Shown in pieces: positions 2,019-32,553 of a stretch of 64,000 bases of DNA. The position numbers were made by a program, and so were the translations under genes. Below the pieces are notes generated by a model, which searched no databases, was not told where the DNA came from, and saw nothing but the letters and a program-made list of their open reading frames with translations. The first letter of the stretch is position 1. The number at the start of each line of letters is the position of its first letter. The stretch is from a virus: positions 815 to 64,814 of IMG/VR virus record IMGVR_UViG_3300028384_001376. One strand, given 5' to 3'.

Positions 2019-2042
2019 CGGAATCTGGGCCGCACTCAGATA

Positions 2043-2066: not shown

Positions 2067-2107
2067 TTTCTTACCGGCACCGGGCCGTTACCCAAAGGAG
2101 GTTTTAC

Positions 2108-2371
2108 ATGGCTTTTTCATCCACTGTCACCGACAAGACCGTATTTGGCAACAAACGGCGCCATGCCGGCACATTTAGCTGCGCCAGCGTGGCCACTGGC
2201 GACATCGACACGGGCCTGCGCAGCTGCGAGTCCATCACCTTGACCCACAAGAGCTCTGCGGTGGTGACCAACTGTCCGGCGGTCGACGAGACCCTGCCCT
2301 GTGCGGGCTCGGCCGTGACCATCGTCACCGACTCCAGTGCCGCAGGCTACTGGGAGGCAACGGGGTACTAA
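2108..2371 (+). CDS. hypothetical small virion protein (87 aa)
   Basis: AAAGGAGG RBS 6 nt upstream of ATG 2108. Confidence 0.4.
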   Translation: MAFSSTVTDKTVFGNKRRHAGTFSCASVATGDIDTGLRSCESITLTHKSSAVVTNCPAVDETLPCAGSAVTIVTDSSAAGYWEATGY

Positions 2372-2374
2372 CCC

Positions 2375-3094: not shown

Positions 3095-3109
3095 GAGGAG
3101 GAGGGCGCC

Positions 3110-4024
3110 ATGGCCGCACCGATCACCGTTTTTTCCGGCTCGACAGGGCTCAACACCAAGGTTGACCCCACACGGGTGCGCTTTGACCGCCAGGCCGGCA
3201 TCAGCGACCTGGCCGTGGCCTATAACGTCGACCACGACGCCTCCGGGCGCGTGTCGCGCCGCAAGGGTTATAGCGCCACGGCCGTGCTGGCCTCGGCCCA
3301 CAGCCTGTGGTCGGCCGCCGACACCGGCCCGTGCTTTTTCGTCACCGGCACCGATCTGTGCCGGCTGCACAGCGGCTACACCTACACGGCCATCGCCACG
3401 GTGACCGCCGGGGCAACGGTGCGCTACGCACCGCTGGCCGATGTGATCTGCTGGCTCAACGGCCATGAAAAGGGGCAGATACAATTCGGCACCAACAACA
3501 GCTGGGAGGTCGGCGCCTACTATGGGCCGACCACCCACCGCACCTTGAGCGACCCGCCCATCGGCCACCTGGTGGCCACCCATCGCGGGCGCATCTGGAT
3601 CGGCCAGGGATCGGTGGCCTGGTACTCCGAGCCATTTAGCGCTAACCAGTTCGACCTGGCACGCAACTTCGTGCCCTTTGGCACCCGGCTGCGCATGATC
3701 GCGCCCACCGGCCACGCCCTGTTCATCTCCGACGAAAACGGCACCTGGGCGCTGACCGGCGCCGTGCCCGACGACATGCTGCTCAACCAGGTGGCCAACT
3801 ACCCGGCCATCGAGGGCACCGAAGCGGCCATCGATTTGAGCCGCATCGGCGCAGGGGAGATGTTTGGCACCGGGGCCATCTGGACCTCGACCCGTGGGCT
3901 GTGCCTGGGCCTGCCCGACGGCACCATGCTCAACCTGACCGAAAAGAAGTTTGACCTGCCCACCGCAGCCGCCGGCGCTGGCGCCGTGGTGGGCGATCGT
4001 TATGTGGGATTACTGCAACCATAG
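3110..4024 (+). CDS. hypothetical structural protein (304 aa)
   Basis: GGAGGAGGAGGG RBS then ATG 3110. Confidence 0.4.
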   Translation: MAAPITVFSGSTGLNTKVDPTRVRFDRQAGISDLAVAYNVDHDASGRVSRRKGYSATAVLASAHSLWSAADTGPCFFVTGTDLCRLHSGYTYTAIATVTAGATVRYAPLADVICWLNGHEKGQIQFGTNNSWEVGAYYGPTTHRTLSDPPIGHLVATHRGRIWIGQGSVAWYSEPFSANQFDLARNFVPFGTRLRMIAPTGHALFISDENGTWALTGAVPDDMLLNQVANYPAIEGTEAAIDLSRIGAGEMFGTGAIWTSTRGLCLGLPDGTMLNLTEKKFDLPTAAAGAGAVVGDRYVGLLQP

Positions 4025-4041
4025 ACAAGGAGGACCAGCAC

Positions 4042-4911
4042 ATGGACAGCACCAACAACACTCGGATTTTGTACCTGGAGGCCTGCAAGCACGATTTTAG
4101 CGAGTTCATGCACACCCATCCGGGCTATTTTCGCCGGCCCAGCGACGGGCGCATCGACTTCAAGAAAAAGATGATGGAGGACGTGCCCTGGCTCTACGTC
4201 AAGGGCGGACGCAGTCAAAACTGTATTTTGTGGCACAAGATTATGTTCAATGTAATCCATAAGATGAACAAGGTGCCCATCCCCTGCCAGAATTGCTGGA
4301 AAGTGGTGATCATGCCGCGCAATTTGGAGGAGCTCATGGCCACCTGGATACTGCAGCAGGAGCTGGGCCGGCCGAGCAAGTGCGGCACCGAGGGCGAGCG
4401 CTCCAACACCGACCGGCTCTATGGCGGCTACTGGTACAACAACAGCCTGGACGAAGGGCTGGCGTGCTACGAGGCTGTTAAAAATCAGATGGCTGATCAT
4501 CGGACCTACCGGCGCGAGTTTCTCGGCGTGCCGCTGAGCTGCAGCTTCGGAAACAATTACCTGGAAGGCGATGTCGGCTTGTTTCCCCGTTTGATCCTAA
4601 AGCGCGGCTGCACCGAGATGGAGCAGCACTGCGGCCCGTCGGACCAGTGGGACTACGACGGCGTCCAGAAAGAGACCGAGGCGATTGCCACCGACGCCTT
4701 TGCCGCCGATATCGTCGGGCTGCACCAGAGCGAAAACCACATCGCCTCGATCTTAAAGACCTACATCCACAAGGCCTTTCAGTGGGGTGACCCGAGCTAC
4801 GTCAAGTTTACCAACGGCAACCGGCTGTTCGAGCCGCCGGTGACCTATCACGATAAAGATGAGGAGTTTTTAAACCAGGTCAGAAAGCGGACCTTCGAGC
4901 CCATGCGCTGA
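4042..4911 (+). CDS. Cys/His/Trp-rich hypothetical protein (289 aa)
   Basis: AAGGAGG RBS. Local GC dip at 4150-4330. Many CxxC and HxxxH pairs. No family recognised. Confidence 0.45.
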   Translation: MDSTNNTRILYLEACKHDFSEFMHTHPGYFRRPSDGRIDFKKKMMEDVPWLYVKGGRSQNCILWHKIMFNVIHKMNKVPIPCQNCWKVVIMPRNLEELMATWILQQELGRPSKCGTEGERSNTDRLYGGYWYNNSLDEGLACYEAVKNQMADHRTYRREFLGVPLSCSFGNNYLEGDVGLFPRLILKRGCTEMEQHCGPSDQWDYDGVQKETEAIATDAFAADIVGLHQSENHIASILKTYIHKAFQWGDPSYVKFTNGNRLFEPPVTYHDKDEEFLNQVRKRTFEPMR

Positions 4912-4933
4912 CCGCCAAAGGAGGAACCGAACC

Positions 4934-5356
4934 ATGGCCAAGAACGTACACAACGATGTGCTGGACCAGGCGCTGAGCTATCTGTCGACCAATGCCAACC
5001 GTCTGGTGGTGCTCACTGCCGAGCCTACCGGGGCCAGCGCCTACACCAACGCGCAGACCAACTACGACAGCAGCGGCTACCGGCTGGCCGAGGCGACCAT
5101 CAGCGCATCGGACTTTACCGGCCCGGCCGACGGCGACACCTCGGGCAGAAAGATCACGGTCAACGCCCAGAGCTCGATGAGCATCAACGGCGTGGCCAGC
5201 TCGGCTAATGCCACCCATGTGGGCCTGGTGCTCAATCATGCCAGCGCCAGCTCCCAGGCGGTGCTCTACACCACCACCTGCACCAGCCAGAGCCTGACCG
5301 GGGGCAACCAGGTCAACACGCCGGCGTGGGATATCGAGCTTCGTGATCCGACTTAA
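4934..5356 (+). CDS. Ser/Thr/Ala-rich virion protein (140 aa)
   Basis: AAAGGAGG RBS then ATG 4934. Confidence 0.4.
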   Translation: MAKNVHNDVLDQALSYLSTNANRLVVLTAEPTGASAYTNAQTNYDSSGYRLAEATISASDFTGPADGDTSGRKITVNAQSSMSINGVASSANATHVGLVLNHASASSQAVLYTTTCTSQSLTGGNQVNTPAWDIELRDPT

Positions 5357-8567: not shown

Positions 8568-9084
8568 CATGTCTGTCAAGATCAGAGATGTCACCATGAC
8601 CCGGCCGTCCGACGATATCACTATTGAGGCCGGCCACAGCTTTGTCATGGGGGGCCAGATCGTCACCCATGGCGGCGGCCCCTTCTGGAAAGAATCCGGC
8701 GACATGTACTTTGAGTGGGACCAGGGCAACGGCGCCTGGGTCCCCATCGACACCAGCGGCGATCTATATCACGTCACTGACAACCCGGTTGCCGGGCTAC
8801 AAACCAGTGAAGAGCAGACCATCGATATATATTCGGATGCTATGGCCGATGGCACATATCAATTACGAGTCAAGATTGTCGAAGATGATGGCACCACCGA
8901 GCATATCAGCACGGTCCATACCGTCACGGTCACCAGCAGGGCACAGCTTGAGCTACATGATTGTGTCCATATGCACCTGGGCCAAAACATAACGCTGGCC
9001 CAGGCCAGGGCCGTCAACGCGCTGCCCGCTTATGGCCACGACCTTCATCCTGTTCGCGGACGCAAACGATCACGGAGAGCATGA
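8557..9084 (+). CDS. hypothetical protein (175 aa; alternative ATG at 8569)
   Basis: ORF overlapping the fibre gene's stop, in the structural run. Confidence 0.4.
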   Translation: MWHSMSVKIRDVTMTRPSDDITIEAGHSFVMGGQIVTHGGGPFWKESGDMYFEWDQGNGAWVPIDTSGDLYHVTDNPVAGLQTSEEQTIDIYSDAMADGTYQLRVKIVEDDGTTEHISTVHTVTVTSRAQLELHDCVHMHLGQNITLAQARAVNALPAYGHDLHPVRGRKRSRRA

Positions 9085-9115
9085 GCCCGCGACCATGAAA
9101 TAGGGGAGAATTTCA

Positions 9116-9421
9116 ATGATCACCGAAACCGTGTACCGCAACCGCGACAACATCATCTCGTTGGAACTGCGTGCCAACGGCGAGGCCCAGGATATCACCG
9201 GCACCACGCGCATGACGCTGGCCATCGGCGACAAGACCATCGACTCTAACTTGGCCTCGGGCGTGTTCGACTGGACCACCAACGGCGCCGGCGGCCAGCT
9301 GGACCTGACCCTGGGCCACCAGGGCCTGGAAAAGGGCACCTACACGGCAACATTGACCATCTTTGACCTGACCTACCCCAACGGCCTGTGCTGGGGCGAT
9401 TTCGTGGTCAAGGTGCGATAG
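9116..9421 (+). CDS. hypothetical protein (101 aa)
   Basis: GGGGAGA RBS then ATG 9116. Confidence 0.4.
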   Translation: MITETVYRNRDNIISLELRANGEAQDITGTTRMTLAIGDKTIDSNLASGVFDWTTNGAGGQLDLTLGHQGLEKGTYTATLTIFDLTYPNGLCWGDFVVKVR

Positions 9422-9430: not shown

Positions 9431-9931
9431 ATGACCGACTATTTAGGTATTTGCTATCATCTGGAGGGAAAACAGGCCAGCCAGTACGCCAACTTCAACT
9501 TCAACTCCATGTGCCGCTTCAACGGGGTGGACTTAGGGGCCAACGAAAACGGCATCTTTGTCCTCGACGACGGCGATTTCGACTACTCCGATGCGAGCAC
9601 CTACGAGCAGATCGACGCCTTTGTCGAGCTGCCCACCAGCGACTGGGGCATCGAAAACCAGAAGCGCATCCGCAGCGCCCACCTGGGCATCGAGACCAAC
9701 GGCGAGCTTTTGCTCACGTTGACCGACGATGAGGGCGTGGACCACCGCTACGACGTGGTGCCTGACTTTGTCGCTCACAAGCAGCACAGCGTGCGCATCA
9801 CAGCCGGGCGCAACAATGGCAAGGGCCGCTACTGGCGGGTGCGTCTGGACAATATCAACGGGGCCGACTTTAGCCTCAACAACCTGCGCGTCTATCCGGT
9901 CGTGCTGGGCGTGCGGCCGGCCCGCAGCTAA
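9431..9931 (+). CDS. hypothetical protein (166 aa)
   Basis: TAGGAGG RBS then ATG 9431. Confidence 0.4.
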   Translation: MTDYLGICYHLEGKQASQYANFNFNSMCRFNGVDLGANENGIFVLDDGDFDYSDASTYEQIDAFVELPTSDWGIENQKRIRSAHLGIETNGELLLTLTDDEGVDHRYDVVPDFVAHKQHSVRITAGRNNGKGRYWRVRLDNINGADFSLNNLRVYPVVLGVRPARS

Positions 9932-9949
9932 AAAAAAGGAGTATTGGTC

Positions 9950-10192
9950 ATGCCAGATTTTAAAAATCCATTTCCCTTCCATGGGCTGTATAGGTCTTCC
10001 CTCGAAAAACTGCAAAATGCCACCGGCGGCAGAACACCGAAGCCGGCGCCGAAGCCCCCGGTAAAGCAGAAAAGGCCTGTGATTCGGACGCCGGCCCGGC
10101 AGGCGGCTTCGATCGAGACCATGTCGCCCGAGCAGCGGGCCCAATACATGAAGCGGGTAAAAAAGCTCTATCAAGACAGGCGCGGCCCATGA
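9950..10192 (+). CDS. small basic Pro/Lys-rich protein (80 aa)
   Basis: AAAGGAG RBS then ATG 9950. The track start at 9944 is a TTG. Confidence 0.35.
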   Translation: MPDFKNPFPFHGLYRSSLEKLQNATGGRTPKPAPKPPVKQKRPVIRTPARQAASIETMSPEQRAQYMKRVKKLYQDRRGP

Positions 10193-13683: not shown

Positions 13684-15648
13684 ATGTCCTTTACTTTTCC
13701 GGGTGATCCCGTAAACCTAACGGCACCGCAAGCGGTGTCCTCTTCGGGCCAAACCGTGCTCGAAAAGTTCCAGCAGGCGCAAAGCTATGCCGATTCGGCC
13801 TGGAACGAAACCTGGAACCTGCTCGACCAGCTCAGAAACCAAGAGTACTTGATCGAGTGGGAGCCCATCGAGGTGGACGATCTGGACCTGATGGGTCTGG
13901 ACGGGCTGGGCATGGAAGAGCCGGCCGAGCCTGCGGTGGACACCGACATCGCCGTGGCCACCACGACCATGAGCGCGGAGGCGCCCACCTTAGATGATGT
14001 GGATATCTCAGCCGAGACGCCGCCGGCCATGAACGTGGCCGATCCGCAGTTTGCCATCCCGGACGCGCCCACCGACGAGTTCCCGGTCTTTAGCGAAAAC
14101 GCCCCGGACCTGACGGCCATCGACTATCCGACCCGGCCGGACATCGATCTGCCGGCCGTACCGCAGCTGACCGATGTGTCGATCCCCAGCCCGCCCGAGT
14201 ACAACATCGCCGATTTCGAGGGCACGGCGCCCACTGCGGATCTGACGCCGCCGGATGTGAGCTTCAACTTTGACGAGGCGGCATATACCAGCGCAGTCGG
14301 AGACGAGCTGGCGACCAAGCTGTTGGGCGACCTGCAGACCGGCGGCAGCGGCCTGGACGAGGCCACCGAGCAGGCCATCTACGATCGGGCCATCTCGCGC
14401 CAGCAGACCGAAAACGAAAAGGTGGTCAACGATGCCTTGAACTTTTTTGCCAGCCGGGGCTTTACCCTGCCGCCCGGTGCGCTATCCGGGGCGATCATCG
14501 AGGCCAACACCCGCGTGGCCCAGATCCGCGAGGATCTGAACAACGACATTCTGATCCAGCAGTCCAACCTGGCGCAGAAAAACACCCACTTTACCATCTC
14601 CTCGTCCATCGAGCAGGAAAAGGGCTTGATGGCCCTGCACAACCAGGTCCAGCAACGCGCCTTCGAGGTGGCCCAATACACGGTGGAGGCCGCCGTGAAG
14701 ATCTACGGCATCCGGGTCGAAGCCTACAAGGCCCAGCTGGAGGCCTATAAGGCCCTGGCTCAAGTCTATGAAGTGCGCATCCGGGCCGAGATCGGCAAGG
14801 CCGAGATCTACAGGGCCCAGATCGAAGGGGTCAAGGCCGTGGTGGAGGTGGACCGGGCACGGGTGGAGGCCTATCGGGCCCAGGTGCAAGGCGTTGCCAC
14901 GCTGATCGAGCTCTACCGAGCCGAGATGGAAGGCACGCGGGTCCGCGCCGAGGTGGACCGCACCCGCGTGCAGTCTTTCGGCGCCCTGGTCGAGGCCTAC
15001 CGGGCACAGATCCAAGCGGTCACGGCCCGATACGAGGCCTACCGCTACCAGATCGAAGGCGAGAAGGTCAAAGCCGACATGTACCGCAGCCAGGTTGAGG
15101 CCTATGTCGCCCAGGTCCAGGCCTATAAGGCACGGGCCGATGTGGATGTCTCCCGCGCCCAGGTGGCCGTCGAACTCAACCGTGGCCGGGTGGAGGTCTA
15201 CCGGGCCGAGATCGAACGCTACCGGGCCGAAGTGCAGGCGGCCATCGCCCAGGCCGAGACCGAAGTCAAGGTCGAAGAGCTGGAGGTGGGGGTTTACGAG
15301 AGCCAGATCAAAAGATATCAGGCCGAGGTAGATGCCACCGTGCGGGCCTTTCTCGGTCGCGTCGAAGAGCTCAAGGCCCAGATCGACCTGGAGATCAAAG
15401 AGGCCGATGTCTCCACGCGCACGGCCATTGCCAGGTACGAGATGATGACCGAGTCGATCCGCAGCGCCGCCCGTGTGTCGGGCCAGCTGGCCGCATCGGC
15501 CATGGCCTCGGTATCGGCGTCGGCCGATATTTCGCACCGGGAGAGCCGCAGCGACTCGACGAGCCAATCGGCCAACGCCTCGGCCAGCAGCAGTCATAGC
15601 AGGGCGTACAGCCACAGCTGGCAAGATATTACCGTACATCATACTTAA
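13684..15648 (+). CDS. internal-virion / ejection protein candidate (654 aa) with ~30 tandem 11-residue helical repeats
   Basis: AAGGAGG RBS. Acidic/Pro N-terminus. A 33-nt periodic repeat encodes VEAYRAQIxGV-type 11-mers. Ser-rich C-terminal tail. Confidence 0.5.
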   Translation: MSFTFPGDPVNLTAPQAVSSSGQTVLEKFQQAQSYADSAWNETWNLLDQLRNQEYLIEWEPIEVDDLDLMGLDGLGMEEPAEPAVDTDIAVATTTMSAEAPTLDDVDISAETPPAMNVADPQFAIPDAPTDEFPVFSENAPDLTAIDYPTRPDIDLPAVPQLTDVSIPSPPEYNIADFEGTAPTADLTPPDVSFNFDEAAYTSAVGDELATKLLGDLQTGGSGLDEATEQAIYDRAISRQQTENEKVVNDALNFFASRGFTLPPGALSGAIIEANTRVAQIREDLNNDILIQQSNLAQKNTHFTISSSIEQEKGLMALHNQVQQRAFEVAQYTVEAAVKIYGIRVEAYKAQLEAYKALAQVYEVRIRAEIGKAEIYRAQIEGVKAVVEVDRARVEAYRAQVQGVATLIELYRAEMEGTRVRAEVDRTRVQSFGALVEAYRAQIQAVTARYEAYRYQIEGEKVKADMYRSQVEAYVAQVQAYKARADVDVSRAQVAVELNRGRVEVYRAEIERYRAEVQAAIAQAETEVKVEELEVGVYESQIKRYQAEVDATVRAFLGRVEELKAQIDLEIKEADVSTRTAIARYEMMTESIRSAARVSGQLAASAMASVSASADISHRESRSDSTSQSANASASSSHSRAYSHSWQDITVHHT

Positions 15649-16749: not shown

Positions 16750-19700
16750 ATGGCTGTCTCATTGGCAGAAATAAGCCGGTGGATGGATGAGCAGGACGAG
16801 GCCCCGCGCTCAGCGCCGCAGGCCTTTCGTTTTGAACCACCGCCCCAGGCAGAGCCTTACCTGCCCCACATTAAAGCGGCCGAGCAAAAATATGGGCTGC
16901 CGGAAAACCTGCTGGCACGGGTGATTGCCCAAGAGAGTAACTTTAACCCGCAGGCGGTCTCGCCCAAAGGGGCCAGAGGTATCGCCCAGATCATGCCCGA
17001 CTATCATCCCGATGTGGACCCGGACGACCCGGTCCAGGCCATCGACTATGCAGCCGGCTATCTGCGCCAGAACGCCGACCGCTTCGGTGGCGACTGGGAC
17101 AAGGCCATCGCCGCCTATAATGCCGGCCCCGGCAATATTGAAAAAGGCATTATGCCGGCCGAAACCCAAGATTATCTCAAACGCATCAAGGGAGATGTCG
17201 CCCCGGTAGCCGGCGACGTGGATCTGCAATCGATTCTGGCCTGGATGGACGAAGAGGACCGGCGCCAGGCTGCGCCCGAGCCCGGCCTGATCAAGTCCGT
17301 CACAGGCGATGTCGCCGGCGGCTTGATCGATCTTGGCGAAATGTACGCCCGCGCCGGTCGCGCCCTGCCCGGCGGCCCGGAGGCCGGCGTCGAAGGCGGT
17401 GACTTTTTATCCAAGGCCGTCGTGTGGGCCGAAGACTTTCGCAAGGCCAACCCGAGCCTGGATGTCAATCCCAACCGCAAGGGGTTTTCGCGCTGGTTTC
17501 ACGAAGGCCTGCGTGCAGCCACTACTTCTATAGCCGCAGGCCTGCCCGGTGCGGCCGCCGGTGCCGCCATAGGTTCTCTTGTCAGCCCTGGCGTGGGCAC
17601 CTTCATCGGCGGTCTTCTCGGTTATGCCACCGGTGGCGCCACCCTTTTCGGTATGAGCGAATATGACTCGTTTCTGGAAGAGGCTCTCAATGCCGGCGTG
17701 CCGCTGGACCAGGCCGAGCCGGCCGCGATGCGCAGCGGCATGTACGAGTGGAGTTTCGAGTTTGGCGCCGATCTTTTGGAAGGTTTGACCCTGGGTGCTG
17801 GCAAACTGGCTTCCGCCGCTGGCAAGCAAGCCCTCAAGGAGACGGTTGCATCCCTTTTCAAGCAGGGCGTCAAGTCCGCTTTGAAGCGCGGGACGGGCAT
17901 CGTGGGCATCGAGACCGCCTCAGAGATGCTCACCGCCGGTTTACAGGCCGAAGAGTTGCAAGGCTTGGGCATCGGCAGCCAGCGCTTTACCGAGGCGGCC
18001 ATCCATGCCTTTGGCCCCTCGCTGGTGGCCTCGATGATCTTTGCCGGCCTGGGCGAGTATGGCCGGCATCGGGTGAGCAAGCGGGTGCAAAACACCTTGA
18101 AAGACCCCGAGGCCTCACCGGAGGCCCGCGAGGCTGCGGTCAAGATGGTCCACGACGCCATCGCCCCGGTCAATGAGCAAGTGGCGGCGCTGTGGCAGGA
18201 CACGGCCATGCAGGCGGTGGCAAACAACGAGGCCATCGACCTGGATGCGCCCATCGCCACCGACGCCCAGCTCGATGCCATGATCGAGGCCGACGTGGAC
18301 CTGGGCGAAAACGCGGCCAATGCCGTGGCCCAGGAGGAGGCTGCCGCTGCGGCCACCGAGCAGACCACCATTGAAGAAGACATCGACGCCCATGAGGCCT
18401 CCAAGGCCGCCGACCCGCTGGGCGACGACGCCATCGCCCAGGATATCATCGACAAGATCGCTGGCGGCCGTACCGCCCCGGTGGCCACCGTGCCACGCGG
18501 GCAAGGGGCCGAAGAGCTCAAGGCGGCCATTAGTGACTCAAAAACGGCCGAAAGTGAGCCACAAACCGGTTTGCCATTAACGGGTGAGGCACAAGCCTAT
18601 GAGCTGCCGCCTAAAACCGAAGGCGACTACAACCGCATCAAAGACTATGCCCAGTGGTTCAGAGCCAACCGCGATATGTCCAAGCGCTCCAATGCGGCCA
18701 GGGCCGATGAATTGGACTATTTTCTGGAGCGTCTGAGCCTGGGCAATCTGCCCATGCGACTGGCCCGAGTGATCAAAGGCAAAGGCAAGACCTGGGGCGA
18801 CGAGCGCATGGACCGCGTGGTCGATTTGCACGAACCGGTGCGCCGGGCCCTGGCTGATAAGTATGGCATGAACCTGATCAACAAGGCTTTTGAGGACCCC
18901 GAGTATAAAAAGAAGATCCGGGCCAAGCAAAAGGCCCAGGAGGAGCTACACCAACAGGCCCGCGAGCTGCTGACCGAGGACGAGTACCGCAAGGTCAGCA
19001 TGACCAACGTGCTGAGCCACTACTTCGACCCGGAGAAAAAAGAGCGGCCCACCACCTACGGCCTGGCACGCCGGCTTAACACCAGTGTGGAGGAGATCCG
19101 CGAGGCCATCGCCCTGGTCAACGAGTTCACCGACGGCGGACTCTATGTGGGCGAGCGCGGCGTGATCGACGGCACCATGTTCGATCGTGACGGTTATGAT
19201 ATGCACCGCGTCTTTCAGGGGGTGATCGACAAACGGGGTCAAACCGGGCCAAAACCGGAAGAACCGGGTGAAACCGTTTCAACCCAGGTTGAAACGCCGA
19301 CCGAAAAACCGCAAACCAAGCGCGAAAAGGCCGAAGCCGAATATAACGAGTTGGTGGCCTCTCTCACCGACGAGCAGCGCACCGCCCTGGGAGATCTGGT
19401 CAAAGAGACCGCGCCGAAAAACCCCTCGGTGTTGACCCACCGCATCCGCAAAAAGCTGGCCGAGATGGAAAAGGCGCCAGAAGCGCCGCAGATCCCCACC
19501 GATGTTATGCGAATGGTCAATGGCCGCTATGTCCAGATGACTGAGGCCGAGCGCCCTGCCCTGTACGAGCAGCTGGCTGACCTTAAAAAACAGGCCCAGG
19601 CCCACGGCGACAAGTTCCCACGGGGTACGATGCTGGCCGTCAATGCGCAGATGCGAACCCTGGAAAACGGGGCGGGCGAAATACCGACCTTCAAGACCAT

Positions 19701-22700
19701 TATCAACGAGGCCAAAGAGGAATTGGCCAAGCTGGAAAAGCCCCCGGCGCCGGCAGAAGAACCTGCCGATTCAACCTGGTGGGATAAAGAGCTGACACCC
19801 CAGGGCCGCCGCGAAGTTATGGCCAAGGCCGGCATTAAGCTGCCCGCCAGGGTCTTGTGGCGCAACATTTCGGATGAGAATCGGGCACGGCTATTGAGGG
19901 CCAAAGAAAGTGAACCTCCGGCCGGCAAAAAAACCGGCCTGACACCCGAGGGGCGAAGATCGCTCACCCGCCTGCGCGACCACCTCGAAAACAAGGGCGC
20001 CGGCTGGATACCGTCGGCAAAAAATACCTCCGAGCGCGTATCCTATCGCATTGTCCCGAGCGAAGCCAAGGACGGCTATTACAGCATCGAGCGTATTGAC
20101 GAGCGGAAGCTGCGCCAGATCCACACCGGCCCCTGGAATATGGAGCAGGCCAGGGCCGCCGCCATGAGGATGGCCAGGATGGAGCTGGAAACCGGGGAAA
20201 AACCCCCTCACCCTTCCAGTATCAAGAAGACCAAAGAAGAAAAAGCATCCGTGAAATTTGAGATCGGCGATATCGTGCGCCCCAAGCAGGGCAGCGGCAT
20301 CAGCGAAAAAAATGCCGGACGAATCGAACACATCAGCCGCGACAGCCAGGGCAATGAGTCGATCCAGACCGAAAACACCGGCAGCATGCACTTTGACGCC
20401 AAAGATTGGGAGCTGGTCACGCCCGAGGCTGAAAAGCCCTTGACACCAGATTCACAGATAGCAAATAATAAACCATTAGCCAGCGTTAGCGCCGACGACC
20501 TTCTGGCCGAGTGGGACCGGCAGGCGGCCGAGGCCGAAAAGCCGAAAAAGCCGAAAAAGCCGGAGACCTTAAAAGAGCGCCGCAAAAAGGTCAAGGCCCG
20601 GCAAAAGCAAAACGCCCAGGCGGCCAAACAGCCGGCCAAAGTAAAAAAGGCCGCCCGGCAAAAGGCCAAAGAGACCAAACAGCACCTGGCCAACGCCCTG
20701 GACGCCCTCAAGCAGATCAATAAGATTGTGGGCGAAAAGGGCCAGCTCGGCGAGGTCGACCCAACCAAATGGGAGCAGATCCGGCCGCTGCTCAAACTGG
20801 CCTGGGATGAAATGCTGGCCGCCGGCAAATCGGCCAAGGAGTTTGTGGCCCTGTCGCTGCAGACCCTGAGTCCGGCAGGCCGCCCCTATTTCGAGAAATT
20901 CGTAAGAGAGGAGATCGCCAATGAGCCTGTATCCGGTGAGAATGAAATACCTTTTGATGAGGGACTTTTACGGGACCGTGAAGAAGTGGCGGGAGAACCC
21001 CGACCAGCTGGACCAGGAGATCAGACAGACGCTGATCAATTCGGGCCAGTACGCGCAGGAGCTGAAGAGCAAGAACCTGGCATACGACCAGAGACAGGAG
21101 CTGATCAACAACTTCATCGCCCCGGCGGACGTACCGGACAAGCAAAGCCCGGACGAAAACCTGTTCGAGCAGATGATCAAGTGGGCGGAGGAAAAGGGAG
21201 CTCAGTTTCTCCAGGAGCGCAAGGCACAGAAGCGTTAGCGCCCGAGGATCGCAACCACGTCATCGCCCCCGACGATGTTATCGCCCCGCCTGGGATCGAG
21301 GGCAAAATCAACGCCAACATCAAGGCTATTCGCCTGCTCAAACAGCTGGAAGAACAAGATCGCAACCCCACCCCTGACGAAAAGAAAATCCTGGCCCAAT
21401 ATGTCGGTTGGGGCGCCTTTTCGCAAAAGGTGTTCAACGCCGACTATCACCGCTACTTGACCAAAAACAAAGACACGGCCCCGGAGGATTACTTTTGGCA
21501 GCCCGAAACGCTGAAAAAGTACAACCAGTGGGCCAACAAGTACGGCAAAAAGCTGCACCCCCAGCTCGGCGGCTTGATGACCCAGGAGGAGTGGAGCTCG
21601 GCGGCAGCGTCTACGATCAACGCTCATTTCACTTCAAAAGAGGTCGTTACCAACATGTGGGACCTGGCCAAACGTCTGGGGTTTAAGGGCGGCACCGTGC
21701 TCGAACCCGCCGCCGGCGTCGGCAACTTCTTTGGTCTCATGCCCCAGGATATCGCCCAAGAATCGGTTCTTTTCGGCGTGGAAAAAGACAGCCTCTCCGG
21801 CCGGATTCTCACCAAGCTGTATCCCCAAGCCGCCATAGAGGTGGGCCCGTTTGAAAAAAGCAGGGCGGTGCTGGACAACTCCATCGACCTGACCATTACC
21901 AACGTGCCCTTTGGCCGCGTTTCGATCTCAGACAAGCGCCATCCTGACTATGACGGCTGGCGGCTGCACAACTACTTTCTGGCCCGCAGCCTGGACGCCA
22001 CCAAGCCCGGCGGTCTGATGATGGCCATCACCTCGGCCTGGTCCATGGACGCCAAGAGCAACGGCAATGTGCGCGAATACCTGGCCAACAAAGCCGACCT
22101 GATCGGCGCCATACGCCTGCCCAACACGGCATTTAAGAGCAATGCCGGCACAGAGGTTGTCACCGATGTGCTGGTATTTCGCAAAAAGGACTCCAACGCC
22201 GCGAGCCTGGGCCACGATTTTCGCGTGGTCGACTATCTCGACAACAAAGAGTTCAGGGCGGCCGAAAAAAAGCTGATGCAAGCGCGGGAGCGGTTTGCCC
22301 GAGTGAAGAAAACCAAGCCCCAAAAAGACGCCAAGGCCCATGTCATGCGTGCCTATCGCCGGCGGTACAAGGCGGCCAAAGAGGCCGTCTCAGAGGCCAT
22401 GACAGACTATCGGGCCAGCTACGCGATCAACGAATACTTTATCAAAAACCCTGAGATGGTCCTGGGCAAGCACTCGATGAAAGGCTCGATGTACGCGGCC
22501 AACACTTACACCGTTGAGCCCTCGGGTGATCTGGCCGGGCAGATGGCCGAGGCCGTGACATCGTTTCCAGAAAATATTGCCGGCGAAGGCAGCGATCTGA
22601 GTCAACTGGAAAGGGTGGAGCTGGCCGGGATGAACGCCAAAGAGGGCACGCTGACCGTAAAAGACGGCGAGATCAAACTCATTGAAAACGGCCGTCTGGT

Positions 22701-25700
22701 CTCCCCACACTATGTGGGCAGCAAAGGTGAAAAGATGCCGCTCAAGCCGGCACAGCTCAAGCGCGTCAAGGCTTATCTCAAGCTGCGCGACCTGACGGCC
22801 GAGACCATTGCGGCCATGGGCGATGAGGCCACCACCGACGCCCAGGTCACAGACTACCAGCGCCGACTCAACCAGACCTATGATGCCTACGTCAAAAAAT
22901 TCAAGGCTTTCAACGGCAACGCTGCAAACAGTTTTCTGTCAAAGCTGGACAACGATTTTGCCTTGGTCGACGCCCTGGAGGTCCGCGTGGGCGATGGGCC
23001 CGACGCCGAATGGGTCAAGGCGCCGATCTTTACCGAGCGCACCGTATATCCTTTCAGAGAGCCCGACTCGGCCGACAGCATCGAGGACGCCATAAACCTT
23101 TCGATCATCTACCGTGGCGAGGTGTCGATGCCGTACCTGTCCGAGCTGTTGAGCATCCAGGATGCCGAAGCGATCAAGCGCGAGATCGTTGAAAAGGGCC
23201 TGGGGTTTGTCAACCCGGACACCGGCAAGGTCGAGCAGCGCGACCTGTATCTGTCCGGCAACGTGAAAAAAAAGCTGGCCAAGGCCAAGACGCTCGCTCA
23301 GGGCGATCCGTCTTATAATGCCAATGTCAAGGCGCTTGAGGCGGTTATTCCCGAAGATATTGATATCGAGTTTATCACCTTTCGCCTGGGCTCGACCTGG
23401 CTGCCGGCCGAAGCGGTCCAGGACTTTATAAAAGAGGTCATCGAGGTCGACGCCACCGTTGAGTACGTCGAAAAGGCCGGTGTGTCGCGCTGGCATATCG
23501 GCATAAACTCCGGCGCTTTCAACATAAAAAACCGTGAGACCTATGCCAGCGGCGATATTTCGGCCGTCGGTCTGATCGATCTGGCCCTTAACCTTAAATC
23601 GCCAAAGGTCATGGTGCCCACCGAGGACGGCAAGAGCACCTACGAGGATAAGGAAAAATCCAGAGAGGCTCGGATCAAGATGAACGAGGTCAGCGACGAG
23701 TTTGTCGCCTGGGCCAAGGGGCACGCCGACTGGACCTCCAGGTTGACCGCCAAGTATAACGAAGAGAAAAACGGCACCGTGCTGAGAAAGCACACCGCCC
23801 CGGATATCGATGTTTACCCCAACGCCAGCCCGGTTAATGTGGATGGCGCCCCGTTGCGGCTGCGTGAGCATCAGAAAATTGCCGTATCACGGGCCCTGCA
23901 AGAGTCTGTCCTGCTGGCCTACGGTGTGGGCACCGGCAAGACCTTTATCCTGATCACCACGGCCATGGAGATGAAACGCATCGGCACGGCCCGCAAGCCG
24001 CTGATCGTGGCCCACAACTCGACCATCGACCAGTACCGCAACAGCTTTAAGGTGCTCTATCCGGGCGCCAAGGTGCTGATCCCCAACGACAAACAGCGCA
24101 ACGCCAAGCAGCGCAAAAAGCTGCTGATCAGCATGGCCACCAATGACTGGGACGCCATCGTGCTGCCCCAGAGCTTTTTCGACGGCATCGCCAACGATCC
24201 GGCCAGAGAGCAGGCCTTTGTCGATGAGCAGATCGCACAAATCGAGGATGCCATTGCCGAGGCGGTAGCCGAGGAGGGCTCCGACTCCTGGACGGTCAAG
24301 GATCTGGAAACCCTCAAGGAGAACCGCATCCAGCGTCTGGATCGCCTGCTGGACCGTCGCCAAGACGAGGCGCTGACCTTTGAGCAGATGGGCATCGACG
24401 CCCTGTTGGTCGACGAGGTCCACTCCTATAAGCGCAGCGAGTTTTACACCAAGCTGAACAAGGTGCGCGGCATCGACAACGGCTCCAGCCAAAAGTCGAC
24501 CAGCCTGATCTTAAAGAGCCAGTTTGTCCGGCAAAAGACCGGCGGGAAAAACATTATCACGGCCACCGGCACCCCGATATCCAACACCCTGGCCGAGCTG
24601 TGGACCATGCTGCGCTATGTGCGGCCCGATCTGCTCGAAGACTATGGCGTGGCGATGTTCGACAACTTCGCCTCCACCTTCGGGGTGGTCGATGAGGACA
24701 CCGAACAGACGGCCAGCGGCTTCAAAGAGATCGAGCGCTTTAAGAGTTACACCAACGGCCCCGAGTTGCTGAGCATGTTCTACAGCGGCGCCGACGTGCG
24801 CCTGACCAAAGATGCCAACCTGCGCCTGCCGGACATCAAGGGCGACAAGCCCACGATGGTCGTCAACGACAAGTCGCCCGAGCTGACGCTCTATATCAAG
24901 GATATCATCGATCGATGGAAGGCATGGGAATTGTTGACCGGCCGAGAAAAGCGGCAACAGAAGCATGTGCCCATCGTGCTCTATGGCCTGGCCAAAAAGG
25001 CCGCCGTGGATATGCGCCTGGTCGACCCGCAGTATTTCCAAGACGATCCCAACAGCAAGGTCAACAACTGTGTGCGCGAGGCCCAGCGCATCTACAAAGA
25101 GTCTGCCGATATCCAGGGGACACAGGTCATATTTTGCGATCTGATTCGAGACAACGCCAAAGCTCCGCGCTTTAACCTGCACGAAGATCTTAGGGCCAAG
25201 CTGATCAAAACCGGCATCGGCGATGACGAAGTTGTCATATTTGAGTCCGGCCTATCCGATACCAAAGAAGAAGCCATCAAAGACCGGGTGCGCAGCGGGG
25301 CGATCCGGGTGATTATCGGCACCACCGAGCGCCTGGGCATTGGCGTTGACATCGCCGACAAGATCGTGGCCGGCCATCATCTGACCGTGCCGGATCGGCC
25401 CATGGATATGGAGCAGCGCAACGGCCGGTTTATCCGTCAAAGCAACAAAAACAGCCAGGTCGAAGTGCTACAATACGCCACCAAGGACACCCTGGACGCG
25501 GTTATGTTCCAGCGCCTGGCCACCAAGCAAAAGGGCGCCGACCAGGTTCTGACCGGCGATATCGACGGCCGCGACTTCGAGGACCCGTACAGCGCCGAGC
25601 AGGCCGATTTTAACGAGTTCGCCGCTGCGGCCTCGGGCAAGGCCGGCAAGCTGTTGTTTGAAAAGAGCAAGCTGACCAGCCAATTGCACAAACACCGGAT

Positions 25701-28700
25701 CGCCGAACAGGCCCATATTCGCAAGGTCTCCAACGCCCGACGGGAGATCAACCAGATCCCGGAACTGATCAGGCACGCAGAGATCGACTTGGCAAACGCC
25801 GAGCAGTTCAAGGCATACACGGACGAGGCCTTTCCTACCGGCAGGCTTGAAAAGCTGACCATCGACGGCAAGGAGATGCCCCGCAAGGAGGCCTATGAGA
25901 TCCTCACCAAGCGCATCGAGAGCCAGATCAGCGCCTGGGAGGACGAGTTTATCGGCAAGCCCATGGGCGATTTTCGCAAAAACGCTCCTGACAAAGATGG
26001 GTATGGAGACCCCAGGCTCAGCGCCGAGTATAAGCTGGCCGCCGGCGATATCGAGCTAAGGGTCGAGCTGATCGGCCGGGAAAACTATACTAAGGAGAGA
26101 AAGCCGTCGACTAAGCTGCAATGGTCTGAGGTCCGGGATAGGAGGGACGAAGATTGGCGCACCCAAAAGGTCGGCAATATCCCGATCAGCCTAAGATTCA
26201 AGGGCCGATTCCTGGGCCATATCTACAACGTAGGGCGCAAAAGCCTGGCCCAGCGGATCACCAGAAAACTCAACGAGCTAATTGCCGAAAGCAAAACGAG
26301 GCCGGATTATCATCGCAAGGCCATTAAGGCGCACAAAGCGGATATGGCCGAATATGAGAAGATCGCCCAGGAGTCGTTCAAATACCGCGAGGAAATGACC
26401 GAGATCCAACGCCGCATCGCCGAGATCAAAGCGGAGCTGACCCGGCTGAGCTCCGATGAGCTGCTCGGCGTCGAAGACGAGACGGCCGAGCAAGAGACGC
26501 CGGCGCCCAGCGGCATAGTCTACCATACGAAAAGCTCGGGACAGATCCGCACCCAGGCCATGAAGGACTTAAAAAACGGGATCATGCGCCTGCTGGTCGA
26601 CGACCTTAACCTCCACCGCCATGAAATCGAGGACTGGAAAGAACACATCAAAGAGGTCAAGGATACGCCCAAGGGCATTGTGATCGCCACCAGGAACTTT
26701 ATGGCCGCTTATGACTATGAGCTCAGCGCCGATGCGCGTCGGGCCCTGGGCCGGTTGATGCGCAATGCCACCGAGCAGATCAACCAGGGCCAACTGGTCG
26801 GCACCTTTGGAGAACCGCTGAGCGCCGGTATTCCAAAGGCCCTGGACGAAACCTTGCCCGATGACCTGCCCGAAGGGGTCACCCGGTTTGCCATGGGCAC
26901 CGCCGTCGAACGCCGGGCCCTAAATGTCCAACAGGTGCGCAACGTCCAGCGTGCCGCCGAGGTGGTCACCGCCGCCTTGTCCAAAGCCGGAGTCTCCAAG
27001 GCGTTGCGCAAGCAGATCACCCTCGACTTTAAGCCGATCATCGACCTGCGCGGCAAGGACATCGAGCAGACCGTCAAGGAGTGGGCCGCCCAGAAAAAGA
27101 GCGTTTCCACCATCTTGGGCGCCACCACTTTTAGCCGCTTCAACGCCCTGGTACAGCTCTCCCTGGAGCAGGACCTGACCAGACTGGAGCGCACCAGCTA
27201 CCACGAAGCGCTGCATATCCTGGCCCGCTGGGTGCTGCCCGAGGCCGAATATGGCCGGTTGATGAAGATGTATGACGGCAACGAAGAGGCCGCCGCCGAG
27301 GGCTTTGCCGACTATATGGCCGGGCGCACCAAACCGATCGGATGGCTGCGGCGCATCTTCATCAAGCTGCGCAACTTGCTCCGGCGGGTGGGAGGCGCCC
27401 TGCGCGGCGCCGGCTTTGTCAGCGCCGAGGATATCTTCGGTCGAATGGCCGGCCGGGCCTATACCGGTCAACCGATGCGACCGGCTACGGGCACCAGCAT
27501 CGCCCTGATGGCCGAACAGCGGGCCGCCAAATGGTACAGTCAGATGGAACGTCACCTGGAAGCCAAATTGCCGGGCAAAGGCACGCCGGCGCAGATCAAA
27601 AAGCTGCTCGACATCTGGGCCAAAAAGGGCCAGATCAACGCCGAGGAGCTGGAGTGGTCGGGGCTGCGCGAGTGGTTGGATGATTTCCAAAAGACAAAAG
27701 AGGCCGAATGGGTCGAGCAGCAAAAGCAATCCAAACAGATCAAAGACGAGCTTGGAAGGGGATATATGGACTTCTTGCTCGGAAGACATGAAACCGCCCT
27801 CGAAGGCATCAAAAGCTATGACCGGATCATAGACCGCTTAAAGGGCGAGGCTAAAAAGCAAAAGTTTGCCGTTACAAAGGCTGACGTGCTGGCCCAGCTG
27901 GCCGCCGGCCGGGTGCGGATCGAGGAGGTGGTAAAGGGTACATATCCGGTTTTAGACACCATCGCCAAAGAGATGGGTTATGGTGGATGGACGGCAGATT
28001 TAACAGATGAACAACAGCAAGAGATTATTGCTGAATCAGAAAGATATCCCCATCTTGGCGATGCCACCAAATTCGCCCAATGGCAAGAACCCGGCGGCGA
28101 GAACTACCGCGAGTTGCTGCTGACGCTGCCGGCAAAACAAGCACCTTTAAAAGATATTGATACGTCAAGCTGGACAGTCGAAACAATAGAAGAAAATGAG
28201 TACACTGGGCAGCGCGATATAGTCATTTTTGATGAAAACGGAAATCGATTAACTACGCGGTATGGGTTTAGAGGCACTGACGAAATGGCCATTGGCCAAA
28301 TGTCTGAAATAGAGAAAGACAGAGCACAACGGGCAAAGCAAAAAGAAGCAACCTATAAATCCACCCACTGGGACGAGCCCAACGTGTTGGCCCATGTCCG
28401 TTTCAACGAGCGCACCGGCACCGATGGCGAGCGCATCCTGTTCATCGAGGAGATCCAGAGCGACTGGCACCAGACCGGGCGCCAGAAGGGGTATAAAGGC
28501 GATATACCACACCCAAAAATCCGCAAGGTCGGCACCGTCCACACTTATACGCAAGAAGAATTAAAAAAAGAAGCAGACCATTGGCCCGTTGATTACATGC
28601 GAGATATTTCCGGGTTGAAGGCATCGGACATAACCTCTTTATCTGATCGCCTGACGAGGGAGGATCAAGAGCGGATACTCGAAGGGATAAAGGCTGGTGG

Positions 28701-31700
28701 GCGTCTCGGCAAAACCAATCCAATATGGGTGGTGAAAAATCCTGCCGGGGAGATTGTTTTTGCCACAATGTGGGGCAAAGGTGTGGCAGAGCAAACCGCA
28801 AACAAGTGGACCATGGCAGATCCCAAAACAGATAAGGAGCTGTTGGACAGAGAGGGGGATAGAATACGCCATAGCTCAAAAGAGGTTGTCGAACAACAGG
28901 CCCACTACCGCAGGGTCAACATGCAAGAGGGCATGGTCCCCGACGCCCCCTACAAAAAGACCTGGCCCCTGCTGGCCATGAAAAGGATGGTGCGCTACGC
29001 CGCCGAGGCCGGCTTCGACGCCATCGCCTGGACGCCGGGCGAGGTGCAGGCCGAGCGGTATGATTTGAGAAAGCACATCGATAATCTTTACTACGAGAAG
29101 CATCCAGACGGCATCACCATCGTTGCCAACAAAGATGATCGGCCCATCCTTGAGAAAGACAAGCTGTCCGAGCGTGCTTTAGAAGACCATGTTGGCAAGG
29201 ATTTGGCCAAAAAGATCATCGATGCAAAGGATGACCAAGGCATCTTCGACGGCCTGGATCTCAAAGTCGGCGGCCAGGGAATGCGCGGCTTTTACGACAA
29301 GATCCTGCCGGCCACGGTCAACAAGTTCTTCGGCAAAAAGGCCTGGGGCAAGGCCAAGGCCGAGACAATAGTGATCCCAAAAACCGCATTGTCTCCAGGG
29401 GAAAAAATTGACAGGTCAAGCCCATATGCCAGGGAAGTCTGGCACCTGCCCATCACCCGCGAGATGCGTCAAAAAGCCCTGGGCGAGGGCATGACCTTGT
29501 TCCAGGTGGCCGACACCACCGACGTTTTCGGCGAGGTGCTGCCCGAACCGGTGGAAGAGCAGATGAAAGCCGCCCGTGGCCGCGACAAGGCCAGCGTCAA
29601 GCAGCGTTTTTCCGACTGGCTCAAAACGGCCATCGCCACCTTCACGCCGGGCCAGATGTATCCGCAGATGCCCAACAAATACTTTGGCAAGGAAAACGAG
29701 ATCCTGCGCCGCTTCGTGGAGATCGCCAGCTACTCCAAGTCGCGGGCGGTGATGGACCTAAAAGAGATCCTCAACCCCAAACAGCTGGGGCCGGCCGGAT
29801 ACGACCTGTTTAACCTAAAGATCGTGCTCGACGACATGCTCTACGACGTGGAGACCGAGGGCCGGCCGCTCAACGACTGGCAGGAGCGCTACGGCGAGCT
29901 GCCCTTCGGCTTTGAAAGCGCCGACCAGCTGCGCGAGTCATTGGCTCGCATCGACCAGCGCGTGGCGGCCAACGCCGACGTGGCCGCAGCGCTGCAAAAA
30001 CGGCGCAAGATCATGCGCAAGCTGCGCCGGGACCTGGTGGCCGAGGGCCTTTTGGACCGCTCAGTATTGGATGACGAGCGCTACTTTCACCATGAAGTGC
30101 TCCAGTATGCCAACCTGGCCCACATGGCCGGCGTGGGCACCGGCTCGCGGGATGTGCGCACCAAGAAAAAGGGCTGGCAGATCTACCGCACCGGCTCGAT
30201 CAAAGACTACAACACCGAATACATGCAAAGCGAGTTCAAGGTGCTGGCCCAAGGCTACTCCCAGCTGGAGACCAAGCGTATCCTCGATGAGCTGGATGAG
30301 TCGAGCAACATCATCGGCGAGCTGCGCCACAAGGCCCGACAGCTTAACTATGTGGCCATCGTCGGCGGCCAGGAGAACTACAACCGGCTGCAACAGCTGC
30401 GCAACCAGGTGGCCTACCTGCGCGGCGACGGTCGAGACCTGGACAGCGATACCAAGGCCCAGATCAAAGCGCTCACCGACGAGATCTGGCAGCTGGACCC
30501 CACCATGCCCTTTCGGCAAAAGATCGCCATCGGCATGAGCAAGATGGGCGAGCCCCTGGAAGATGACCTGGAGTATATGGACTTTTCCGAGATCGCACGG
30601 CTGGCCGACGCGGGCGACATGGGCGCGGCCACGGTGCTAAAGGCCGTCAACGAGCGCAAGGCCTTTATCGCCGAGGCCCTGGGCGACGCCCACATGACCT
30701 GGCAAAAGCTCATGGAAGAGCGCGAGCCGCGCAAAGGGTCGGCCGGCTGGGCCGAGTGGATACCCAAACCCGGATCGGCCTGGTATCTGACCAACTCGCT
30801 GACCGACAAGCTGCTCGAACAGGTGGCCGCCGGGCTGCCCATCAGCCAAGAAGAGATCCGTCAGGTGTGGACCCGTGGCACCGACAAGCGCTGGGTAGTG
30901 CCCGCCGAGCTGGCCGAAGTGCTCAACGGCAAGGAGTTTATGAACCTCAAGCAGGACAACGTGGTAGCCGAAGCGGCTGAAAAGACCCTTAATTGGTGGA
31001 AGCGCTGGATACTGATCAACCCTTTTCGCTTTTTCAAGTACAACTTTAACAACCTGTCCGGCGACTTCGATATCGTCCTGGCCTATGACCCCAAGATCTT
31101 AAATTGGACCAAGCAGGCCGCCATAGACCTGTGGGCCCATCACTACGACAAGCCCATGGGGCCGGCCACCAAGGCCGAGCTGACCAAGGCCCTCAAGTAC
31201 GGCGTGATCGGCTCGGGCATGACGGTGCATGACATCCCCGACATTACCGACAGCGCCCAGTTCGATCAGCTGATCAGCGCCCTGCGGGCCGACAAACGCA
31301 AGGGCATCGACTACATCAAGCGCTTTTGGGGGGGCAGTAAAAACTTTACCACCTGGCGCGAAAACGTGCTGCGCCTGGCCTCCTATCGCTATTTTCAAGA
31401 AAAAGTTAGGGCCGGCAAACGGGTCTACGGTGCCAGCGACGTGGCCAAGGTCGATGCGGTCACCGATCCAGACAAAAAGGCCGCCTTGCTGGCCCGCGAG
31501 CTGATCGGCGACTACGGCGGGCTGAGCAAGGGCGGTCAGTGGCTGCGCCGCAATGCGATCCCCTTTTACAGCTGGAATGAGATCAACGCCCCGCGCTACT
31601 GGCGCATGTTCAAAAACCTGCCCGTCGAGGGCGAGCCCAGGGGCCGGCGCCTGCGCATGGGCGGCGCCCTGGCCAAAAAGGCCGGCGTAACCACGGCCAA

Positions 31701-32553: not shown

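Follow-up and report, generated by a model that had tools for sequence, protein, structure and literature searches.

Few phage proteins are as large, or as little understood, as the giant polyvalent proteins, and one of them raises the question of what a long C-terminal stretch outside all named families contributes to such a protein. The DNA analysed (64,000 nucleotides of IMG/VR virus record IMGVR_UViG_3300028384_001376, positions 815 to 64,814; hereafter the window) carries an open reading frame (ORF) for a protein of 5,267 amino acids (aa). Its final 1,784 residues, from position 27199 to the stop codon, are the stretch under study. An earlier note, made from the letters alone, had pointed to an HExxH motif followed by about 1,800 aa of unassigned domains, had suggested a zincin-like metallopeptidase, and had named the downstream blocks as the likeliest place for undescribed enzymatic or toxin domains. 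We think that the giant protein is probably a DarB-like polyvalent protein that is packaged in the virion and ejected, with a metallopeptidase for self-processing, an effector unit named D1/D2, and a C-terminal module (CTM) that serves as a chassis for packaging or ejection.

The layout given in the earlier note was borne out. The HExxH motif and the downstream region belong to one ORF, with HEALH at 27202-27216 and 1,784 aa to the stop, and the sequence blocks that had been quoted are present (WPLLAMKRMVRYAAEAGFDAIAW at 28963-29031, GIDYIKRFWGG at 31303-31335 and NAIPFYSWNEINAPRYW at 31552-31602). The C-terminal 1,784 aa are non-repetitive, as self-BLAST returned no internal repeat. Neither Pfam, even at E ≤ 10, nor NCBIfam contained a match to them, PHROG gave a single weak one, and the downstream blocks were also absent from PDB by sequence, in agreement with the statement that no family could be named. 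When each member of the three alignments (peptidase, D1/D2 and CTM) was likewise scanned against Pfam, NCBIfam and PHROG, none of the three could be assigned to a named family. The impression of conservation was correct as well: 1,378 database proteins were matched at E ≤ 1e-3, and the last 1,008 aa matched 2,887 cluster representatives. The best 120 of the 1,378 matches were all metagenomic and 1,063-3,112 aa long (mostly 2,000-3,100), and Pfam domains of the polyvalent type (LPD38, LPD22, LPD23, ART-PolyVal, RadC and InPase) were frequent among them. The known LPD domains of these homologues sit outside the parts that match the C-terminal stretch of the query. The exact 5,267-aa protein is a cluster representative (P0126) in a public protein collection.

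Mapping of the hits on the query gave four conserved blocks: aa ~3390-3575 around HExxH, aa ~3585-3915 (H1 and D1), aa ~4066-4250 (D2) and aa 4260-5267 (CTM). The giant ORF and the features of its C-terminal part are as follows.

16750..32553, plus strand: giant ORF, polyvalent protein of 5,267 aa, final large gene of the virion structural block (ORF list, translation)
26917..27474, plus strand: predicted zincin-type metallopeptidase domain (MPT), ~190 aa, aa ~3390-3575 (alignment A3, homologue conservation)
27202..27216, plus strand: HEALH motif, aa 3485-3489, with His3485, Glu3486 and His3489 (translation, alignment A3)
27286..27288, plus strand: Glu3513, predicted third zinc ligand, in an E-x-x-A helix (near-invariant column E124 of A3, then invariant Ala127)
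27340..27408, plus strand: cationic amphipathic helix past the peptidase core, aa ~3531-3553 (conserved in A3; helix 102-124 of the AlphaFold model)
27502..27846, plus strand: small helical domain H1, aa ~3585-3699, 'AKWYSQ...ELEWSGLxEWL' (in 97 of 269 collected proteins; predicted local distance difference test score, pLDDT, ~80-93)
27847..28494, plus strand: D1, first half of a bipartite conserved domain, aa ~3700-3915 (invariant residues in alignment A2; in ~115 of the 120 top matches)
28495..28944, plus strand: variable low-confidence linker or insert between D1 and D2 (coverage 18-31 of 120 matches; pLDDT <50)
29527..32553, plus strand: CTM, aa 4260-5267 plus the stop codon, 1,008 aa
30862..32070, plus strand: conserved core of the CTM, aa ~4705-5107, overlapping the N-terminal part of Pfam LPD38 (hhalign to the module of Bcep22 gp75 and Stx phages; LPD38 placed via gp75)

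The predicted metallopeptidase domain around HEALH

HEALH is the sole HExxH of the whole giant protein; position 27199 is in frame and corresponds to Tyr3484. A lone motif of this kind is weak by itself, with 0.108 expected from composition and at least one present in 9.9% of shuffles. We regard it as real because it is kept in 120 of 127 homologous segments, not because of the motif alone. A local iterative search found the MPT domain in about 125 of the 269 collected proteins.

Alignment A3 (22 members, 18-40% identity) has His3485, Glu3486, His3489 and Ala3516 as its sole invariant residues. Glu3513 is near-invariant and stands 24 residues past His3489, where predicted helix 83-94 begins; HEALH lies inside predicted helix 52-66 of an AlphaFold model that begins at aa 3430 (pLDDT of the helices, 79-92). 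This combination, an HExxH helix and a Glu on the helix after it, is the gluzincin signature described for metallopeptidases of polyvalent proteins. The alignment supports the assignment of this ~190-aa domain as a zincin-type metallopeptidase. The predicted catalytic set (His3485, Glu3486, His3489 and Glu3513) is intact and of gluzincin type.

Matches to known peptidase models were few. Scanning the 22 members of A3 against Pfam peptidases gave a single weak match, to Tox-MPTase2 (E 7e-4), and a PDB profile search with A3 gave nothing significant (IrrE, E 1.4). When MPT was compared by hhalign with the HExxH subdomain (C1) of the N4 virion RNA polymerase (vRNAP), the probability (Prob) was 52% with E 1.5e-4, a weak and no more than suggestive similarity across a beta-hairpin and the HExxH helix; the hairpin 'ILGAT...LVQLSL' of MPT was paired with C1 in this alignment.

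Polyvalent metallopeptidases (Pfam MPTase-PolyVal) are the closest comparison. MPT resembles them in having the HExxH helix and then the Glu-ligand helix with variable inserts between helices, and in being joined to SNF2 ATPase, adenine methylase and lysozyme-type domains. It differs in falling below their Pfam model and every other peptidase model and in its conserved cationic amphipathic helix past the core. Zincin-like MPTases of polyvalent proteins occur in fusions with SNF2 ATPases, adenine methylases and lysozymes and have been proposed to act in polyprotein processing (Iyer et al. 2017, PMC5512222).

Most homologues share the helix past the peptidase core, IGWLRRIFIKLRNLLRRVGGALR (aa ~3531-3553, window 27340-27408). 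The human antimicrobial peptide LL-37 was weakly matched by the MPT domain profile (E 0.19). This cationic amphipathic helix may be a membrane-binding element.

MPT is often a neighbour of the CTM. It was found upstream in 65 of 157 CTM-bearing proteins, and in 39 of these 65 it ends 60 or fewer residues before the start of the CTM. In the present protein, H1, D1 and D2 are inserted between the two.

The C-terminal module and the LPD38 end of virion proteins

A CTM profile of 15 sequences was searched against 1.84 billion cluster representatives. The module was found in the 2,887 protein clusters mentioned above, 2,080 of them at E ≤ 1e-30, in proteins from about 750 to 6,639 aa, the shortest of which are probably truncated. 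In every case the module matched the C-terminal end of the protein; across 161 proteins, the median number of residues beyond it was 7. The cargo ahead of it varies: DarB was found in 35 proteins and D1/D2 in about 28, many proteins had neither of these nor MPT, and MPT was detected ahead of the CTM in 20 proteins by single-sequence search and in 65 by iterative profile. Here, too, the CTM stands at the extreme C-terminus of a giant protein that is encoded with virion genes.

The CTM is, by profile comparison, homologous to the LPD38-bearing end of Bcep22 gp75 and of the giant proteins of Stx phages. When 157 CTM sequences were compared by hhalign with 21 Bcep22-type sequences, Prob was 96.1% (E 3.6e-9) over 346 columns, covering CTM residues 446-848, and the reciprocal run gave 97.4% (E 9.5e-12). 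Thin profiles of the CTM against Bcep22 gp75 gave a Prob of 1-5%. Because only enriched profiles reached significance, a reversed-profile control was run, and it gave 0.3%. Several motifs are common to both modules: x-N-P, N-x-x-x-D, E-N-x-L-R-L-x-x-Y and A-A-x-x-A-[RK], after which a hydrophobic helix and a cluster of acidic residues follow. The alignment covers no more of LPD38 than its N-terminal part.

Relatives of the C-terminal stretch of Bcep22 gp75 were found in 339 phage records, including those of Stx phages, Vibrio phages and the archaeal virus MetMV. This Bcep22-type module contains Pfam LPD38, and at each of the four loci inspected (Bcep22, Stx2 phage 86, Vibrio phage D80 and MetMV) it ends a giant ORF. 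In the Methanosarcina virus MetMV (MK170447; L010, 6001-8223), the giant ORF with the LPD38-bearing end has about 3,000 aa. The Bcep22-type module spans bacterial and archaeal viruses, since it is also present in MetMV.

The nearest described relatives of the whole protein are Bcep22 gp75 and JC1 gp69 of Lessievirus podophages, which are also giant (4,515-4,602 aa) and encoded by the last gene of the virion module. The DarB methylase-helicase core of gp75 (4,602 aa) is 32% identical to the present protein across aa 1523-2963 of the latter. In gp75 there is an internal HEAFH at 3552, which is hit by the MPT profile (E 2e-4) and followed by ~980 residues, and its C-terminal module of ~1,000 aa is homologous to the CTM by profile comparison. 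There are three differences: the C-terminal modules are only 17% identical over ~350 columns and related at profile level only, gp75 matches Pfam LPD38 directly whereas the present protein does not, and gp75 has no significant match to the A2 profile of D1/D2. Mass spectrometry of purified virions detected JC1 gp69; the JC1 paper also cites such an analysis of Bcep22 virions by Gill et al. and gives no result for gp75 (PMC9144972).

The giant proteins of Stx phages (phi24B gp47 and Stx2 phage 86 orf35; LPD5-LPD1-MuF_C-LPD38) likewise stand at the end of the late operon and have an end module of the same superfamily. Their cargo differs (LPD5, LPD1 and MuF_C, without DarB or D1/D2), and their end module is of the canonical LPD38 type. 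In phi24B, gp47 is abundant in virions and invisible in cryo-electron microscopy, and a role as an encapsidated ejection protein was proposed for it (bioRxiv 10.64898/2026.04.10.717836). A 2,198-aa protein of phage PTXU04 that has LPD38 as its only domain is necessary for efficient infection (bioRxiv 10.1101/2023.09.18.558157).

The C-terminal domain of N4 vRNAP (C1 and C2) offers a parallel in layout: it is also the C-terminal region of a giant ejected protein, and its HExxH subdomain is followed by ~1,000 mostly helical residues (~110 kDa) without structural relatives (PMC13434306). The C-terminal 1,400 aa of N4 vRNAP were reported to be needed for encapsidation (PMC5512222). The two systems differ in that C1 and MPT were related at a Prob of only 52% and in that N4 carries an RNA polymerase as cargo in place of DarB. 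No homology between the CTM and N4 C2 was detected: hhalign gave a Prob of 0.1-0.3 with a single sequence, with a 13-sequence profile and with a large profile.

The CTM is predicted to be mostly helical. A PDB profile search with the CTM alignment gave nothing significant, and neither a solved structural relative nor an enzyme-like structural match was found. Its invariant polar residues are K4751, N4768, D4772, D4774, R4870, E4871, R4875, Y4922 and R4933. A reading of 'GDFDIV' in the CTM as the DxDxD of two-barrel RNA polymerases was discarded: the third Asp is missing and the segment is predicted to be helical.

Two proteins of about 1,050 aa (P0134 and P0124) looked like a stand-alone CTM; both begin at contig edges and are probably truncated, and they were not accepted as such. 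Only a split gene and a 1,642-aa protein (P0125) are informative on a separate CTM chain. The split gene (L001, 934-12268; ENA ERZ25039600 contig_7641, 64.7 kb) consists of ORFs of 1,839, 689 and 755 aa, and two small reverse-strand genes (8641-9171 and 9595-9990) directly precede the ORF that encodes the CTM. This arrangement could be an insertion, or a natural split with the CTM working as a separate chain.

H1 and the bipartite D1/D2 unit

Between MPT and the CTM lie H1 and a bipartite domain, whose second half, D2 (aa ~4066-4250), contains WPLLAMKRM.... D1 and D2 always co-occur, in constant order, with a variable and poorly predicted insert of ~150 aa between them. In alignment A2 (27 sequences, 34-42% identical to the query), about 20 polar residues are invariant. 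Those of D1 are N3785, Y3786, E3788, H3873, N3878, H3882, R3884, E3900, E3901, Q3903 and D3905; the later ones are W4094, Q4100, R4103, Y4104, K4150, Y4182, D4183 and N4191, plus several glycines. This conservation pattern resembles that of an enzyme.

Sequence searches did not connect D1/D2 with any known family. None of the 27 members of A2 matched a Pfam family, with no Acetyltransf match at E ≤ 1, a PDB profile search with A2 gave nothing significant, and hhalign of D1/D2 against the GNAT of Bcep22 gp69 gave a Prob of 0.1. Structure prediction and a Foldseek search, both recommended in the earlier note, were carried out. The AlphaFold model of aa 3430-4300 was mediocre (pLDDT 66; predicted template modelling score 0.48) and better in D2 (pLDDT ~70-93), and the Foldseek search with this model returned nothing significant.

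A GNAT-type fold is predicted for part of D1/D2. The unit has conserved loops, h-G-K-x-h-A-x-K-I and V-G-G-E-G-M-K-G-F-Y-D, neither of which is exactly the canonical GNAT motif A (Q/R-x-x-G-x-G/A). Compared with GNAT acetyltransferases, which include the tRNA-acetylating toxins TacT and AtaT and the GNAT-like domain of ICL2, D1/D2 has no match to a sequence model and a non-canonical motif A, and it has an additional conserved N-terminal half (D1) and the variable insert of ~150 aa.

D1/D2 was further found in a phage of Dolichospermum and on the 278-kb Pseudomonas aeruginosa plasmid p382 (NZ_CP115292; L011, 1-13785), where it is part of a 5,001-aa 'LPD23 domain-containing protein'; the plasmid was typed as non-mobilizable. 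As it is present on this plasmid, D1/D2 is not phage-restricted. In 17 of the collected D1/D2 proteins, a Bcep22-type end module was found instead of the CTM. The CTM and the Bcep22-type module appear to be alternative, distantly related ends, because D1/D2 proteins without the CTM often end in the Bcep22-type module.

Role of the giant protein and its surroundings

Many unrelated domains are joined in this one ORF (SLT, methylase-helicase, peptidase, D1/D2 and CTM), it stands among virion genes, and 17 distinct module combinations were seen in the 269 collected proteins, which together characterize a polyvalent protein. The domains upstream of MPT are listed here.

16870..17166, plus strand: SLT lytic transglycosylase domain, N-terminal, aa 41-139 (Pfam SLT, E 1.2e-24)
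17527..18051, plus strand: Gly-rich hydrophobic segments, aa 260-290 and 416-434 (hydropathy scan)
20992..26619, plus strand: DarB-like N6-adenine methylase and SNF2-type helicase, aa ~1415-3290 (phrog_10089 'DarB-like antirestriction', E 0; Pfam ResIII, SNF2, Helicase_C)

In the sequence of events that we favour, the giant protein would be made with the virion proteins, packed in the capsid and expelled into the host along with the DNA. The SLT domain and the hydrophobic segments would act on the envelope, and the DarB module (adenine methylase-helicase) would be anti-restriction cargo that shields the incoming DNA. We infer that MPT most likely divides the polyprotein into functional parts, either inside the capsid or once it has entered the host, and that D1/D2 is most likely an acyl-transfer or coenzyme A (CoA)- or nucleotide-binding effector acting on a host target in early infection. 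The CTM, a constant part of thousands of giant proteins, most likely serves incorporation into the capsid, ejection through the tail, or both. Domain boundaries, conservation, homologies and predicted folds are results of the analysis; packaging, ejection, self-processing and acyl-transfer chemistry are inferences. Phage P1 DarB is a virion-carried anti-restriction protein with the same methylase-helicase dyad (PMC5512222); it differs in consisting of the dyad only according to Iyer et al., with SLT, MPT, D1/D2 and CTM outside it, a distinction made by description.

Several observations weigh against this reading. The protein and the whole CTM family are known from sequence alone, and tblastn of the CTM against 50,697 isolated-phage records gave no match. 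The homology between the CTM and the LPD38 module covers only ~350 of 1,008 residues, and no CTM member matches Pfam LPD38 directly (none of the 15 even at E ≤ 10). As for the peptidase, the window sequence of MPT did not reach any Pfam metallopeptidase model, and the N-terminal beta-sheet (three-stranded in polyvalent MPTases) was modelled with low confidence, the part before the active-site helix (model from aa 3430) having a pLDDT of only 34-60.

The module assignments also have rivals. MPT, with its predicted catalytic residues intact, might be an effector that cuts host proteins, for example those of defence, or a cell-wall peptidase that aids the N-terminal SLT domain, and not a self-processing enzyme. 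Effector action was another option for polyvalent MPTases in the list of Iyer et al. (PMC5512222), and the metallopeptidase domain of phi24B gp47 was proposed to degrade peptidoglycan (bioRxiv 10.64898/2026.04.10.717836). We regard such a role in place of self-processing as somewhat unlikely, since MPT is internal and often stands right before the CTM (39 of 65), a position that suits processing in cis, and since Pfam and PDB profile searches showed no similarity of MPT to known peptidoglycan peptidase families; the two roles are compatible with each other. That the CTM is itself an enzyme or toxin seems improbable to us. Several of its invariant polar residues (N, D and E-N-x-x-R) recur in the remote Bcep22-type module, but the CTM is the last domain whatever cargo precedes it, is mostly helical and lacks an enzyme-like structural match. 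Its relatives belong to proteins found inside virions (PMC9144972; phi24B preprint), and the layout parallels the HExxH subdomain and large helical C2 of N4 vRNAP, which was reported to be necessary for encapsidation (PMC5512222, PMC13434306). A packaging or ejection module is the most likely identity of the CTM, and more likely than a toxin because the CTM is a distant homologue of the LPD38 end of virion-packaged polyvalent proteins.

D1/D2 might also be non-catalytic, either a ligand-binding or regulatory GNAT-like module, as in the acetyl-CoA-sensing C-terminal domain of Mycobacterium tuberculosis ICL2, or a structural spacer. This is unlikely, as ~20 invariant polar residues, including His/Glu/Asp clusters in D1, exceed what is usual for a spacer or a simple binding module. 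D1/D2 as a RecB-like nuclease of the PD-(D/E)xK type with a Lys-to-Gln variant, and not a GNAT-type protein, is very improbable in our view. Nuclease-like motifs can be picked out in A2 and the AlphaFold model (E3876 precedes a strand, E3901-x-Q3903 lies on the strand that follows, and Q4100-x-x-x-Y4104 lies on a helix further on), and an ExQ variant is known from the nuclease BglII.

The expectation of undescribed enzymatic or toxin domains downstream of HExxH was thus only partly sustained. It is plausible for D1/D2, with its invariant polar residues and predicted GNAT-like fold, and not for the CTM, to which GIDYIKRFWGG and NAIPFYSWNEINAPRYW belong. The outcome that would have spoken against it, known LPD domains or structural spacers, is approached by the CTM as a distant homologue of the LPD38 module.

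Polyvalent proteins that combine a zincin hub with LPD domains were already known as a class. What is added here is two large domain families outside Pfam (either of which may equal an LPD of Iyer et al. that never entered Pfam), the finding that the CTM is homologous to the LPD38 end module, the dyad of peptidase and CTM, and the GNAT-like prediction for D1/D2. Current views are not overturned; named, testable parts are added to them. The CTM family of 2,887 clusters, which is outside Pfam, is now linked by homology to the LPD38 end of virion proteins, which suggests a shared packaging or ejection chassis with exchangeable anti-defence cargo. The dyad, with 39 of 65 cases within 60 aa, makes the self-processing hypothesis testable, and D1/D2, an enzyme-like domain that is abundant, unnamed and predicted to have a GNAT fold, is a candidate for a new early-infection effector.

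A bolder proposal can be made, which we hold tentatively and consider rather doubtful. D1/D2 would be a new and widespread GNAT-fold family that phages and large plasmids deliver with their DNA and that acylates a host tRNA, translation factor or defence protein in the first minutes of infection, as a virion-borne counterpart of TacT and AtaT. Separately, the HExxH peptidase and the ~1,000-aa end module would form a general delivery cassette of a superfamily of giant ejection proteins, comprising Bcep22-like, Stx-type, archaeal and thousands of uncultured members.

The phage of the window is podovirus-like, because the genes upstream of the giant gene match PHROG tail and virion-structural families and because an SU10-type adaptor, a large terminase and a P22-like portal are also encoded in the window. 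The giant gene stands at the end of the structural block here and in related contigs. Residues 175-500 of the giant protein are also found in two other collected proteins (P0001 and P0004), both of which likewise terminate in the CTM. The ~880 residues between the hydrophobic N-terminal region and DarB (aa ~520-1400, window 18310-20950) received no domain assignment. They hold a strongly basic Lys/Ala/Gln-rich stretch (~aa 1290-1345) and acidic or Pro-rich linkers, and the region is common to just three further collected proteins.

Two genes upstream of the giant gene, a 654-aa protein (13684-15648) matches phrog_10969 (E 1e-107), a family without an assigned function, and contains many repeats of coiled-coil-like 'AYxAQ/VEAY' segments. 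This protein could be ejected as a partner of the giant one; a comparison with N4 gp51 as a possible relative showed no similarity. The terminase (56012-57655) and the P22-like portal (58619-60910) lie near one end of the window, and the SU10-type adaptor (2375-3094) lies near the other. From its two ends (56012-60910 and 222-4911), the window resembles an almost complete, circularly permuted genome of a podovirus-like phage.

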